Shown here piece by piece: positions 12,001-36,000 of a stretch of DNA of 64,000 nt. Origin of the DNA: Brachybacterium sillae (GTDB lineage: Bacteria > Actinomycetota > Actinomycetes > Actinomycetales > Dermabacteraceae); assembly GCF_025028335.1 (NCBI RefSeq), contig NZ_JAFEUW010000001.1:1922001-1986000 (forward strand), read 5' to 3'. A program made the position numbers. Each line of letters starts with the position of its first letter. Position 1 is the first letter of the stretch.

Positions 12001-15000
12001 CACAGCACGATCGACGGGTGGTTCAGGTCGCGGTGCACGAAGCGGCGGGTGCGCTCGGTGAGGGTCTCGGTGAAGCGTTCGTCGACGGCGGGACCCTGGG
12101 CGGCGCCGGTCGGGTCCTCCCCGGTGACGTCCGCGTGGAAGCCGTGGGTCTCGAAATCGCCCTCGCAGATCACGTACAGGCCGACCTCGTCGCACACATC
12201 GAGGAAGCGCTGGTGCGGCGGGTAGTGGGAGGTCCGCACCGCGTTGAGGTTGTGCTGCTTCATGAGGGCGGCGTCGAGGTCCTGGTTGCCCTCATGCTGG
12301 GTGCGGCCGACGACCGGATCGGCCTCGTGGCGGTTCACGCCGCGGAACACGACGCGCTCGCCGTTGACGCGGAACGTGCGGCCGACGATCTCGACCCGGC
12401 GGAAGCCGATCCGCAGGGCGACGGTCTCGGTATCGGTGGCGACGGTCGCGTCGTACAGCCGCGGCACCTCGGCGCTCCACGGCTCCACGGTGCCGACGCG
12501 CAGCTCCTGGCCGGTGGCCGCGTCGATCCCGAGCTCCGGCACCCGCACGCGGGCCTGCAGCGGAGCACCGTCGATACCGGTGGCCTCCACCCGCAGCGTG
12601 CCCTCCCCGGTGGCGGGGTCGTAATCGGCGATGTGGCGCAGGTCGTGGATGCCCCCGACGGGCCGCAGCAGCAGATCGACACTGCGGAAGATCCCGGAGG
12701 CCCACCACATGTCCTGGTCCTCGAGGTACGTGTTGACGCTCCACTGGTGCACCCGCACGTCAAGCCGGTGCTCAGCCCCGGGCCGCACCCGGTCGGTGAG
12801 GTCGAACTCCTGAGTGAGACGGGACCCGGCGGTCACACCGATCTCCTCCCCGTCGAGCCACACCATGGCGCAGGAGTCGACCCCCTGGAATCGCAGCAGC
12901 ACCCGGGCGTCGGCGGCGAGGGCGTCGGCCCAGTCGGCGGGGACGGAGACGCTGCGGGCATAGTGGCCGGTGGGGTTCTCGTCGGGCACGTGGGGCACGT
13001 CCCGCGGGATCGGGTAGATGACGTTGGTGTACTGCGGCGCGCCGTGGCCCTGCAGCTGCCACAGCCCCGGCACCTGGATCGTGGTCTCCTCGCCCAGGTC
13101 GGAGCCGTCGGCCCGCTGACCGAGCCGGAAGGACCACTCGCCGTCGAGGGACACCACCGGGGCGTCGCTGTGCAGGTGGGCCCGTCCGGGCAGGCGGCCA
13201 CGGCCCGCGGGCAGCTCCTCCCAGTAGCGGTCCTCCGGGCGGGGACGGGGCAGGGACGTCGGCGCGGTGGCGGGCATCGGGGCTCCAGAGCAGGGATGGT
13301 CGGGTGCCCCCATGCTATGAAGAGCCGTCTCCGGACGGGCCCTCGGTAGACTCGGCACCCGTGACGGCCCTGGACGAGACCCGGTGGACGGCGCACCGCT
13401 CGGAGACGGTGGCCGCCCGCAAGGAGTCGTACGAGCAGCTGCGCCGCGCGAGCACCTGGCGCCTGCTGGCCGCGACCAAGGCCCCGGCGGTGCTGGCGAT
13501 CCTGCAGGCGGTGTTCCCGGCCGGTGATCGGCGCCTGCCCCGCAGCGAACTCGTGGCGCGGGTGGCCACGCACCTGGACCTGCTGCGCGACGAAGGCCAG
13601 GCCCGCACCGCCGCCGAGTACACCGACGACTGGGTGCGCGAGGGATACCTGACCCGGCGCGACGACCCTCAGCACACGGAGACGACTTTCGAGCCGTCGC
13701 CCGCGACGATCGACGCCATCCAGTTCATCGCCAGCCTGCAGGAGCATCGGCCGACGACCACCGAGTCGCGTCTGACCCTGGTGCTGCAGCAGTTCGACCG
13801 GCTGGCGCAGGAGACGGAGACCGACCGGGACGTGCGTCTGGCCGACCTGCAGCGGGAGCGGGCCCGGATCGAGCAGCAGATCCGCGACCTCTCGGAGGGC
13901 GAGCTGATGCTGCCGAGCCCGGAGGCCTCCCTGGACCGTCTGCGGGACGTGCTGCAGATCGCCGCGGAGCTGTCGGGCGACTTCCTGCAGTACCGCGAGG
14001 ACCTGCGCGCCGTCGACCTGCATCTGCGCGAGCAGATCCTCTCCCCGGAGGGCTCCCGCGGCGAGATCCTGGAGCAGCTGCTGGCCGGGGATGACCTGCT
14101 GGGGCAGTCGACAGTGGGCCGCACCTTCACCGCGTTCTTCCGGATGCTCAACGACCCGGTGCAGACCCGCACCGCCCAGGACCTCGTCGACCGCCTCCTG
14201 GAGCGCGACTTCGCCCGCCACCTGAGCCGCTCCGAACGGGAGCGCCTGGCCAACGTGTTCAGCGACCTGTACGAGCCGGCGCAGGAAGTGCTCGACGTGA
14301 AGACCGAGCTGTACCGCTCGCTGGCGCGGTTCGTCCGCTCCCAGGATTTCCGGCAGCATCGGGTGCTGCTGGAGGCGTTGCAGGAGGCACAGGGCCTGGC
14401 CCTCGCGCAGAAGGACGAGGTCCCCACCCGGGCGCCGTTCCCCCTGGAGCTGGAGCTGTCGCGGGCGCAGATGGCGTCGGTGGCGCAGCACCAGTTGAAG
14501 GACCCGACGGACCCCGGTGCCCCGGCGGAGGCGGAGGTCCACGACGCGACGGTGCTCAGCGTGGAGGTGCTGCAGGACCTCGTACGCACCAACGACATCG
14601 ACCTGGTGGGACTCACCGAGGACGTGAACCGGGTGCTCGCCGACGACGGGCAGGCGAGCATCGGCCAGGTGCTGGCGCGCCGCCCCGCCCGGCAGGGCCT
14701 CGCCAGCGTGATCGGGCTGATGTTCCTCGCCACCCAGAACGCGCAGGAACGCGAGGGGTCCACGGAGCTCGTCAGCTGGCAGGAGCTCGACGGCCGGGAA
14801 TACCGGGCCCGTGTGCCCGCCTTCTACTTCCTGCGTGAGGTCCCGGCGGTGTGACGCAGCCCGGCAACAGGACGAGCGCGGGTCGGTCGATCACTTCCGG
14901 GTCTGCGGCGCGAGGGCGTAGCCTGCTCGTCGGCGCGGTGTGATCGGCGACACCATGGTCTTCGGCCGCCCCAGGACAGGGAGAGGACGAGGAATGTCCC

Positions 15001-33000: not shown

Positions 33001-36000
33001 GTACCGGGCGGCGTTCAGCCAGATCCTCGGGATCCCCGACGAGAAGGCCCTCTCGCTGCTGCACAAGATCCAGTCGGCCAAGGAACTCGGCGACGTCAAC
33101 GCCCTGCTTCGGGACTACATGCTCGACGAGCCCCGCACCTTCGACCTGGCCGACCAGGCCCTCGCGAACTTCCAGAACCTCTCTGAGGTGCATGCGGCGC
33201 TGGTGACCGCCCGCGAGCAGCGGGACGTGCTGCGCGGTCTGCGCACCGCCCATGAGGACTGGTCCGCCATGCGCGAGCGCGGCGGGGAGCTGGTGGATCG
33301 TCGCAGCGACATCGACGTGTTCGCCGCGCAGCATCTGGTGCGGCTGCTGGCCGAGGAGCAGGACCGTCTGCAGCTGGAGCAGGACCGTGCCGTCGCGCAG
33401 CAGCGCCGACTCACCCAGGACGTCGCCGACGCCCGCTCCGACCTCGCGCAGCTGACGGACCAGCGGCGCCGTGCGGGTGGTGGGGAGATCGACGACTGGA
33501 AGAAGCAGATCGCCGGGCTGGAGGTGGAGCGGGATCGCCGCTCGGAACGCTCCACCGAGTTCGCGGCGCAGCTGGCCACCGTCGGTCTGCGCACACCCAT
33601 CAGCGAGGACCTGTTCCTCTCCACGCAGCGGGAGGTCGCGGCGCTGCGGCGCGAGCTCGAGGACGAGGAGAAGCAGGCCGGTCGCACCGCCTGGGAGGCC
33701 GAGGCCGCGGTGCGCCGCCACGAGGAGGAGCTCGCGCAGCTGCGCTCCGAGCTGGCCTCCCTCACCGGGCGTGCCTCGAACCTGCACTCGGAGGATGTGG
33801 CGCTGCGTGACCGCATCGCGCAGGAGGTCGGGGTGGCGCCGACGTCGCTGCCCTTCGCCGCAGAGCTGCTGCAGGTGCGGGCGGGCGAGGAGGAGTGGAC
33901 CGCCGCCGCCGAGCAGGCACTGCGGGGACTCGCCCGCTCGATCCTGGTGCCCGACCGGGTGTACCGGGAGGTCGCGGCGGTGATCGACCGGACGCGCCTG
34001 CGTCGGCGTATCGCCTACAACCGCATCAACACCGACCTGCGCCGCCCCGCCAAGCAGATCGACCCCCGCACCCTGGCCGCGAAGCTGGAGGTGAAGGAGG
34101 GCGAGTTCCACGCCTGGCTGAGCGGGGAGATCGCCTCCCGCATGGATTACGTCTGTGCGGAGACACTGGAGGAGTTCACCCGGCTGCCGCGGGCGGTCCT
34201 GAAGTCCGGCCAGATCAAGCACTCCGCCTCCCGACACGAGAAGAACGCCGACCGGTCGATCAACGACCGCTCCCAGTGGGTGCTGGGCTTCGACAACCGT
34301 GCCAAGCGGGCCGTGTTCGAGCGGGAGCGCACTCGCGCCGAACAGGCCCTGTTCGAGGCCCAGGCCCGCCGCCGGGACGTCGCCACGGAGGAGGGGCGCC
34401 GGCGGGAGCGATTGTTCGCCCTGCAGGCCCTCGCTCAGGTGACCTGGGACGACATCGACGCGGCGAGCGTGGCCCGCCGCATCCAGAACCTGCGTGACAT
34501 GGTGCAGGCCGCTGAACGCGGCAGCGATGCCCTGACGGAGATCGCCCGGCAGATCGACGATGTCGAGCGGGCCATCGCCGATGCCGACGAGGAACTGCTC
34601 GAGGTGGTGCGCCACCTGGGCAGGCTCACCGAGCAGTCCGAGCGGGCCGCCGAACGGCTGCACGAGGCGCAGGCCCGGCTCGCGGAGCGCACCCTCGCCC
34701 CGGAGGTGGAGCGGGACCTCGCCGACCGGTTCGCCGCGATCTCCCCGACGCTGGTGCTGTCCACCATCGACCAGGTCACGAAGGACGCCTCCGCCACCCT
34801 CGATGCGGAACTGATGGACCTCACCCGCCGCACCTCCCGCGCGGAGGAGGACATGCGCACCGCCATGCGCGAGTTCGACCGGCGCTGGCCGGCCGAGGCG
34901 GGGGACACCGACGCGTCGCTTGACGCCGTCGGCGACCACCTGGCAATCCTGGCGCGGATCGAGGAGGAGAAGCTGCCGGAGGTGGAGGACCGCTTCGTCG
35001 AGTTCTTCACCGGCAACACCCTCGGGGACGTGCAGGCCCTCGCCACCGCCATCGCACGGGAGCCCGCGGAGATCCGCAAGCGCCTGCAACGGATCAACGC
35101 GCTGCTGGCGCAGGTGGAGTTCCATGCCGGGCGGTACCTGCAGCTGTCGATGCGACCGGTGTACCTGGCGGCGCTCGACGAGTTCAAGCAGGCACTCGAC
35201 GAGGCCGTGGCGCTCACCGTGCAGCAGGACATGAGCCGCGATCGCGAGAACGCGGAGGAACGGTTCCTGGCGCTGCGGCATCTGATGGATCTGGTGGCGC
35301 GGGCCCGCACGCAGGACGATCAGGCCTCCCGGGCGGTGCTCGACGTGCGCCGTCACGTGCACTTCCACGCCGAGGAGGTCGACGCCGACGGCAAGATGGT
35401 GCACGCCCACGAATCGGGCGGCCCGCTCTCGGGTGGTCAGAACGAGCGTCTGACGACGTTCTGCCTGGCTGCGGCGCTGCGGTATCAGCTGGCGGGCACC
35501 GGGGTGGATGTGCCGCGGTACGCGCCGATCATCATCGACGAGGCCTTCTCCAAGGGCGCCGGGGAGTTCATCACCGCCGCCATGGAGTCGTTCCGGCACT
35601 TCGGCTTCCAGGTGGTCCTGGCGAACCCCGGCAAGAACCCGCAGGCTCTGGCCCCGTTCATCGGCGGCGTCGGTGTGGTCTCCATCCGCGACGACCGGTA
35701 CTCGCAGGTCAGCCCGATCGAGTTCGTGCCGGCCGAGGGCTGAGCCTCAGAGCCCGAGGACGCGCTGCAGGCCCCCGAGCGGGATCGGCAGCCAGTAGGG
35801 GCGGTTGCGGGCCTCATACAGCGCCTCGTAGACCGCCTTGTCGGCCTCGAACACCGCGATGAGCGTGCGCGTGGCCTCGGGATCGGCGGGCGGCAGGGTC
35901 GACAGGTAGCCGTCGAGGAAGGCCTCCCGGGCGGCGGCCGCCCAGGCCGAGGCGTCGGCGCCGCTCTCGTGCTGCACCGCACCCGCCACGTAGTCCAGGC

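Follow-up and report, generated by a model that had tools for sequence, protein, structure and literature searches.

The products of the core jetA, jetB and jetC genes carried by Brachybacterium sillae and its relatives are likely to form a chromosome loop extruder of the MksBEF/MukBEF type, with a housekeeping role as the only condensin-type complex of the clade, a reading to which we assign a probability of about 0.55. Domestication of JetABC is well supported by sequence evidence, as the set is core (67/67 clade genomes), occupies a fixed site, appears to have descended vertically under purifying selection, is associated with promoter-like motifs and has shed its nuclease. The first-pass annotation had claimed that JetABC replaced SMC-ScpAB; the domestication part of this claim holds, whereas the takeover itself is kept here as a proposal, since the apparent replacement comes down to one evolutionary event on a single branch.

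Feature coordinates are positions in the window, the whole stretch of 64,000 nucleotides that was analysed, and those prefixed C1 are contig coordinates of the B. sillae genome (G000; 99.99% complete, 2 contigs).

8026..9327, + strand: tgt, upstream anchor of the locus, outside the complex (TIGR00430)
13347..13352, + strand: -10-like hexamer TAGACT, 8 nt upstream of the jetA start codon GTG (predicted leaderless promoter); layout found in 25/25 family jetA copies
13361..14854, + strand: jetA, kleisin (JetA/MksF/MukF type), 497 aa (PADLOC JetA1 E 1e-156; Pfam DUF3375)
14994..20197, no strand assigned: unrelated genes of the jetA-jetB interval, namely an MFS transporter, a TsuA/TsuB-like pair and small ORFs (gene annotation)
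20343..20348, + strand: -10-like hexamer TAGGCT, 6 nt upstream of the jetB start codon GTG; 21/26 family jetB copies
20355..21083, + strand: jetB, KITE subunit (JetB/MksE), 242 aa (Pfam DUF4194 E 2.5e-41; MksE E 4.5e-8)
21436..31428, no strand assigned: unrelated genes of the jetB-jetC interval, namely a siderophore-type ABC transporter, a CstA-like transporter and others (gene annotation)
32342..32347, + strand: -10-like hexamer TAGGCT, 6 nt upstream of the jetC start codon GTG; 16/26 family jetC copies
32354..35743, + strand: jetC, SMC ATPase (JetC/MksB), 1129 aa (PADLOC JetC1 E 0)
35747..37096, - strand: maltokinase-like gene, the usual downstream neighbour of jetC (TIGR02457-like; adjoins most family loci)

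Each of the three jet genes occurs once in G000, with 5.5 kb separating jetA from jetB and 11.3 kb separating jetB from jetC. The earlier description of intact genes scattered among unrelated ones is confirmed by the PADLOC and Pfam matches and by the ATPase motifs of JetC (Walker A GGPGTGKST, signature LSGGQ, Walker B IIIDEAF), which are intact in this genome and invariant in 19/19 aligned family copies. Alignment profiles matched the solved JetA (E 1e-61 to 1e-65) and the solved JetB (E 5e-21), and JetC matched the solved JetC over its full length (E 7e-81). The AlphaFold model of JetA (pLDDT 72, pTM 0.37) has winged helices at both its N- and C-terminus, and fold comparison returned JetA as the best match with MukF second. 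No jetD was found downstream of jetC, where the maltokinase-like gene is located instead. The gene content of the jetA-jetB interval varies among genomes.

The separated jet genes are each predicted to have their own leaderless promoter-like motif. Ten of the 26 jetC copies are without the -10-like hexamer and in all 10 of them jetB abuts jetC; the background frequency of the layout is 16% among G000 genes and 0.3% among mid-gene controls. A sigma-70 scan upstream of jetC gave no match. Such internal motifs may have allowed insertions to push the operon apart with each jet gene still being expressed.

The reported absence of smc, scpA, scpB and jetD from B. sillae was upheld. Profile searches of G000 found neither ScpA nor ScpB, the best E with a 40-sequence JetD profile was 0.18 and the SMC of the sister genome G065 had no BLAST match. 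The sole SMC-hinge match in G000 was ruled out as SMC, being below the cut-off and in an ORF that looks like an unrelated enzyme (NadE-like by eye); JetC itself has no SMC-hinge match. Both xerD-soj-rluB (C1:151497-154424) and ndk-ftsY (C1:2170884-2173036) are closed up, and G065 carries scpA, scpB and smc at the sites vacated here; the three genes have been deleted from their usual places in G000.

Across the family sample of 68 genomes (G000 included), ScpA and ScpB were each found in one genome only, which in both cases is G065. Orthologues of JetA, JetB and JetC are present in 67/68 (70-87%, 60-84% and 68-89% identity respectively), and the one genome lacking the core set is again G065, which has only a 23-30% identical Jet copy adjoining jetD. 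The presence of JetABC is therefore complementary to that of ScpAB in this family, as had been noted for its basal SMC-ScpB genome. ScpB had earlier been searched for in 12 family genomes, a caveat which the search of all 68 for both ScpA and ScpB removes.

The SMC hinge is present in 4/68 family genomes, in line with the previous count. The SMC matches of G048 and G064 were rejected as retained SMC and are likely contamination or transfer because they lie on short contigs (4.5 and 5.1 kb) and are only 49% and 44% identical to the G065 SMC, with no ScpA or ScpB in either genome; the G022 match is at the cut-off. HU, correctly described as missing from most of the family, was found in 4/68, and its loss on the same branch indicates a wider loss of genes.

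The genes jetA, jetB and jetC are retained in all the large clade genomes, which reach 4.9 Mb. Frameshifts in jetB and jetC of G030 were discounted because they also affect neighbouring genes and this genome is only 85% complete, and jetA of G042 has one extra base within a C run. The core jetA of G018 (1 contig, 99% complete) is split by an IS21-type element, and a second JetABC is present in this genome. The same IS lies between jetC2 and jetD of that second system; as a 'replay' this was not significant because at least 40 full IS copies were scored in the first 1.2 Mb.

A JetD_C match was found in 11/68 genomes, the number given previously, and nine of these JetD adjoin their own second JetC, which agrees with the claim that most stand beside a second, divergent jetB. 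The other two are partial, one of them standing alone in G025. These copies could be taken to mean that core JetABC is a standing motor borrowing JetD or another nuclease encoded elsewhere, which we consider very improbable given that 57/68 genomes have no JetD match and that no JetD is linked to the core set anywhere in the family. The column corresponding to the JetD-docking Phe919 of E. coli in the JetC larynx, where the loop aligns loosely, may also speak against borrowing: it is V, A or L in 19/19 core copies (aromatic in 0/19) and aromatic in 16/39 JetD-linked copies, although the JetD-bearing sister clade mostly has L, I or V. The JetB N-terminal motif [FW]xxDxGx[LI], found in 0/19 core versus 58/62 other copies, was rejected as an indicator of domestication: other lineages without JetD retain it, and it seems to be missing from the JetD-bearing sister clade as well.

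The three genes lie on one contig in 48 family genomes, and all 48 preserve the order A-B-C and the strand. The gaps reach 72.6 kb between jetA and jetB, well beyond the maximum of 22 kb reported before, and 37 kb between jetB and jetC. A contiguous three-gene operon does occur, in two of these 48 genomes (G066 and G067) rather than in the one originally counted. Loci of genera g1, g2, g4 and g6 have tgt upstream of jetA, and the core set occupies one fixed site after it.

An RpoB tree of 15 taxa places G065 as sister to the remaining family (bootstrap 100 for the rest). The family JetC sequences form one clade with short inner branches in which the genera follow in the order g6, g3 and then g1/g2/g4, matching RpoB. 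Trees of both JetA and JetC set the family beside mostly JetD-bearing systems and apart from other JetD-less lineages. The dN/dS values of the core jet genes are 0.18, 0.18 and 0.19 versus 0.39 for two neighbours, and 7 congeners share 89.5% identity in core JetC, versus 55-62% among 5 mobile JetD-linked copies.

This ancestry within type I Wadjet, nested among JetD-bearing systems, together with the tolerated loss of jetA in G018, would suit a complex that still defends the cell and restricts plasmids or other circles of DNA not by cleavage but by entrapment or a block to replication. We regard this as improbable. The defence copies found alongside are patchy in distribution (9/68) and divergent whereas the core set is fixed and conserved, no copy with more than 60% identity was found among 72,556 plasmids, and cleavage requires JetD (PMC10889018). 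A search for family plasmids via IS gave no usable result; contig C2 was ruled out as a resident plasmid and consists of collapsed IS sequence.

Loss of ScpB is unusual in the order, with ScpB present in 269/279 genomes outside the family. JetC without JetD occurs in 42 of these 279, and 41 of the 42 keep ScpB; therefore retention of a JetD-less JetABC does not require the loss of SMC. Family f14 has JetC in 22/22 genomes, JetD in 6/22, ScpB in 22/22 and the SMC hinge in 21/22, its JetABC being at a fixed site with clustered neighbours common to 11/18 loci examined, and genus g14 of family f9 likewise combines SMC-ScpAB with a JetD-less JetABC in a fixed location. Both arrangements would fit domestication of JetABC to a more limited task on the chromosome, for instance on newly replicated DNA at forks, if SMC-ScpAB was lost separately with nothing replaced. 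SMC loss without any Jet is seen in five small f5 genomes (0.8-1.9 Mb, 99-100% complete) that have no match for ScpB, SMC hinge or JetC; G172 also lacks all three, and among the ScpB-less genomes of one family other than the Dermabacteraceae 4/9 have JetC, with no tie to Jet.

The segregation machinery that could cover for SMC has been kept as well: G000 has parA, parB and 9 parS-like sites, and FtsK was found in 5/5 family genomes tested. In Corynebacterium glutamicum smc is described as dispensable with FtsK compensating (PMC11898615), and MksB of M. smegmatis seems confined to a local role at forks (PMC11329512). Set against the narrower job are the retention of all three jet genes in every large genome of the clade, the size of the condensin-free f5 genomes (no more than 1.9 Mb) and the fact that, outside families f1 and f14, no family has JetC in all members. 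On balance we think this explanation somewhat unlikely.

Under the preferred reading of a housekeeping loop extruder, the ancestor of the clade would have acquired JetABCD after its split from G065 and lost jetD, with smc, scpA and scpB lost on the same branch. With gain and loss forming a single event, the two could be unlinked. By homology, JetABC would act as a JetA2B4C4 dimer of motors that extrudes loops on both sides and compacts each arm, and it may help to separate newly copied DNA. It would do so without zipping the arms together from parS, unlike SMC. The retained ParABS and FtsK would carry the segregation of origin and terminus, and losing only JetABC is therefore expected to have a slight effect. 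The origin of G000 was located by dnaA and parS, GC skew giving no location. The earlier statement that there is no matS-like motif was sustained by a scan of the terminus, in which no motif was enriched after correction (best P 1e-4 for 2,723 palindromes and 6e-6 for 84,602 11-mers); as positive control, parS was the top origin match.

The clade set has the motor subunits of type I Wadjet (JetABCD/MksBEFG/EptABCD), all three recognised by profile, by sequence and by predicted fold, and an identical gene order. It differs in lacking the JetD Toprim nuclease, in having separately placed genes rather than a four-gene operon, and in being core and vertical where Wadjet is patchy and mobile. MukBEF, known from Enterobacterales and their kin, is a Wadjet-group complex without a nuclease in genomes without SMC-ScpAB, traits also seen in the clade, although the two are not orthologous, the best matches being JetA, JetB and JetC, with MukF recognised by fold only (14% identity in structural alignment). 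The MukBEF genes form an operon. The clade further differs from MukBEF in keeping ParABS and in having no matS-like terminus motif found. SMC-ScpAB is the complex proposed to be stood in for, and its ParB-parS loader is still present.

We put forward only tentatively that this is a second, independent MukBEF-style takeover, in a Gram-positive lineage, in which a captured Wadjet shed its nuclease, ousted SMC-ScpAB and turned an arm-zipped chromosome into one looped arm by arm without MatP. A defence origin of MukBEF with displacement of SMC-ScpAB is offered as speculation in section 7 of PMC10586767, and that idea rests on one ancient event. The present clade would be a second case and recent enough to be legible: the donor family is recognisable, SMC-ScpAB still occupies its old sites in G065, and the intermediate state is found among relatives. 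If the takeover is true, the order would hold every stage, from mobile JetABCD through fixed JetABC with SMC (f14 and g14) to JetABC alone.

The G-less MksBEF systems have MksB, MksE and MksF without MksG, as does the clade set; however, P. aeruginosa, M. smegmatis and the sampled JetD-less lineages of the order keep SMC, and this clade does not. According to published work, JetABC without JetD extrudes loops with no cutting of DNA (PMC10889018), the chromosome of P. aeruginosa is organised by a G-less MksBEF (10.1101/2020.05.18.101659) and MksBEFG of C. glutamicum does not fold the chromosome (PMC7083940). The set had also been presented as a natural non-cutting JetABC; it is nuclease-free, but it is not unique in this, because JetABC without JetD is common across the order and already in print, with FEB operons catalogued for Kineococcus, Paenarthrobacter, Jonesia and Isoptericola (Data S1, PMC7617805). 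The new element is that a Gram-positive clade has a one-time Wadjet and no other complex of condensin type. Scanners for defence systems will count housekeeping sets of this kind as broken Wadjets, and surveys based on operons can overlook dispersed jet genes. The clade set forms a lineage separate from other JetD-less systems in the JetA and JetC trees and has no operon structure, which could explain why the only Brachybacterium entry in Data S1 is the four-gene system of Brachybacterium muris.

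Three intact genes with type I Wadjet matches were found in the window:

13361-14854, plus strand: jetA (kleisin), intact, type I Wadjet match
20355-21083, plus strand: jetB (KITE), intact, type I Wadjet match
32354-35743, plus strand: jetC (SMC ATPase), intact, type I Wadjet match

Transporters and other unrelated genes fill the spaces between them, and dnaA (C1:1627244-1628941) lies about 310-330 kb away. Over its full length JetC can be aligned with the solved JetC structure (E 7e-81), and its ATPase motifs are preserved in all nineteen aligned family copies. The alignment profiles of JetA and JetB gave significant E-values, among solved structures, only against JetA and JetB respectively, and a predicted JetA model (pLDDT 72, pTM 0.37) has a kleisin layout with JetA as best match and MukF next.

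ScpA, ScpB, JetD and a true SMC were not found in this genome (99.99% complete), where the SMC_N matches above cut-off are frames of 225-735 aa, with no SMC-sized frame. The former sites are closed, with soj running directly into rluB and ndk into ftsY; scpA, scpB and smc occupy these junctions in the basal family genome, G065. Gene matches and closed native sites thus confirm the first-pass annotation in that jetABC is intact here and SMC-ScpAB and JetD are missing. The genome retains parA, parB and FtsK along with nine parS-like sites and one dif-like site, all named partly by their motifs. A 16-bp palindrome with the core GTTCCCGCGGGAAC has six copies, none more than about 250 kb from the origin (C1:1403761, 1480627, 1520360, 1534712, 1561734 and 1871490); it is parS-like, yet unlike the nine-site cluster at 1635967-1638075.

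Among 68 family genomes, this one included (the name Dermabacteraceae follows the first-pass annotation), JetA, JetB and JetC orthologues were found in all but G065, which alone carries ScpA and ScpB, so the claim of a JetD-less JetABC core where SMC-ScpAB was lost also stood. G065 is sister to the remaining family in an RpoB tree (one gene, 15 taxa), and therefore JetABC gain and SMC-ScpAB loss map to a single branch. HU loss appears to fall on the same branch, with HU-family matches in four of the 68 genomes, G065 among them, and none in 64, in a search where the control C. glutamicum likewise gave no match. SMC-hinge matches occur in four family genomes, of which only that of G065 is at the native site. 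JetD_C was found in 11 of 68 genomes; nine copies adjoin a second JetC (27-41% identity) and two are partial and stand alone, and it is very improbable that the core JetABC borrows JetD. In G065, some 31 kb separate soj-scpA from scpB-rluB (C2:113234-145989), so operon splitting is not confined to jet genes.

The jetABC of the family bears signs of a housekeeping role. Gene order and strand are constant in all 48 family genomes with the three genes on one contig (those with genes on separate contigs are omitted), with gaps of 0.1-72.6 kb for jetA-jetB and 0.015-37 kb for jetB-jetC. In 28 loci compared (that of G062 poorly called), tgt precedes the set and a maltokinase-like gene usually follows. 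A TANNNT hexamer, presumably a leaderless sigma-A promoter, was found 6-8 nt 5' of the GTG start in 25/25 jetA, 21/26 jetB and 16/26 jetC copies, against 297/1832 genes overall and 4/1333 mid-gene controls; all ten jetC copies without it come directly after jetB. The dN/dS values of the three genes are 0.18-0.19 versus 0.39 for two neighbour genes (Nei-Gojobori, 4-7 congeners per gene; GC bias compresses dS). In JetC (98 sequences) and JetA (91) trees, which take in part of the order's matches, family copies form a single clade next to systems that for the most part carry JetD (support 0.985 and 1.0, respectively), the exact donor being uncertain because of the long stem.

Tgt (8026-9327) is 72% and 69% identical to that of two other families versus 65% to that of G065, where tgt sits in a different gene context; tgt may have come in together with the jet genes. 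An IS5-family transposase piece lies 3' of tgt (9839-10222), and contig C2, which matches the chromosome at about 30 places, consists of collapsed IS sequence. Downstream, a CshA-type fibril repeat protein (37286-39175) is present in most family loci (36-43% identity).

JetABC extrudes loops symmetrically and requires JetD for cutting (available text of PMC10889018), and G-less MksBEF of P. aeruginosa lengthens cis contacts and becomes critical when ParABS is missing (available text of 10.1101/2020.05.18.101659). Nuclease-free JetABC, presumably produced constitutively and the only condensin-type complex in the cell, would most likely form loops along each chromosome arm separately, backed up by ParABS and FtsK, a reading to which we give a probability of about 0.55. 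It would work like G-less MksBEF, differs from full Wadjet in having no JetD and is not orthologous to MukBEF. Defence by JetABC without cutting is distinctly unlikely.

The further interpretation, that JetABC was domesticated and replaced SMC-ScpAB, is partly supported: the housekeeping signs favour domestication, but the proposed takeover is a single correlation across one branch and the nuclease-free state is common, not special to the family. JetC was found in 102 of 279 non-family order genomes; 42 of these have no JetD match and 41 of the 42 keep ScpB. In family f14 (JetC lineage records named Isoptericola, Sanguibacter, Jonesia and Promicromonospora), JetC is present in 22/22 genomes and JetD in 6/22 beside intact SMC-ScpAB, and 11 of the 18 loci compared share a fixed jet site. 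ScpB is absent in ten non-family genomes, three with JetC and JetD, one with JetC and no JetD match, and six without a JetC match. These three observations weigh against a takeover, as does a core jetA split in one clade genome, G018; that JetABC has a narrower role, with SMC loss unlinked to it, is doubtful.

Core jet genes are broken within contigs in three of the 67 clade genomes, G018, G042 and G030; sequencing errors may account for the latter two. In G018, which also carries a second JetABC, jetA is interrupted near residue 335 by an IS21-type element that has a 5-bp target repeat, and at least this strain therefore has no strict need of core JetABC. The element has expanded to 40 or more identical, complete copies across 1.2 Mb, including L087:9804-12382 and L197:5064-7646, one in core jetA and one where jetC2 meets jetD in the second Wadjet.

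Known JetD-less members are included in the Wadjet group (consulted sections of PMC7617805), and by term search its Data S1 lists three-gene operons for four Actinomycetales genera and, for Dermabacteraceae, only a four-gene B. muris system. The Wadjet ancestry of MukBEF and MksBEF is called speculative in the review PMC10586767 (in part). The accessible text of PMC4255298 places Smc and ScpAB in nearly all actinobacteria and does not flag Brachybacterium as an exception. Related work includes PMC11329512, PMC7083940, 10.1101/2023.11.03.565488 and PMC11898615. A full-text search, with subscription literature mostly outside its reach, turned up no publication that deals with the loss of SMC or with JetABC in Dermabacteraceae. 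An entire Gram-positive clade without SMC-ScpAB would surprise specialists, and it renders the defence-to-condensin idea testable.

Two more JetD-less JetABC lineages with fixed chromosomal sites and intact SMC-ScpAB are candidates for an intermediate stage of domestication:

f14: loci L007-L020, L045, L046
f9, genus g14: loci L023-L026

In family f5, nine of 22 genomes (G121, G136, G179, G192, G204, G262, G295, G306, G339) have neither ScpB nor an SMC hinge. Five of the nine, and G172 of family f13, gave no JetC match and may be condensin-free altogether; five of the six ScpB-less, JetC-less genomes are 0.8-1.9 Mb and were searched again with an f5 JetC query, covering Wadjet type I, not types II and III. 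Full-length type I JetC homologues were also found on the small plasmid records H32 (60 kb) and H35 (22 kb), a size reportedly restricted by Wadjet.
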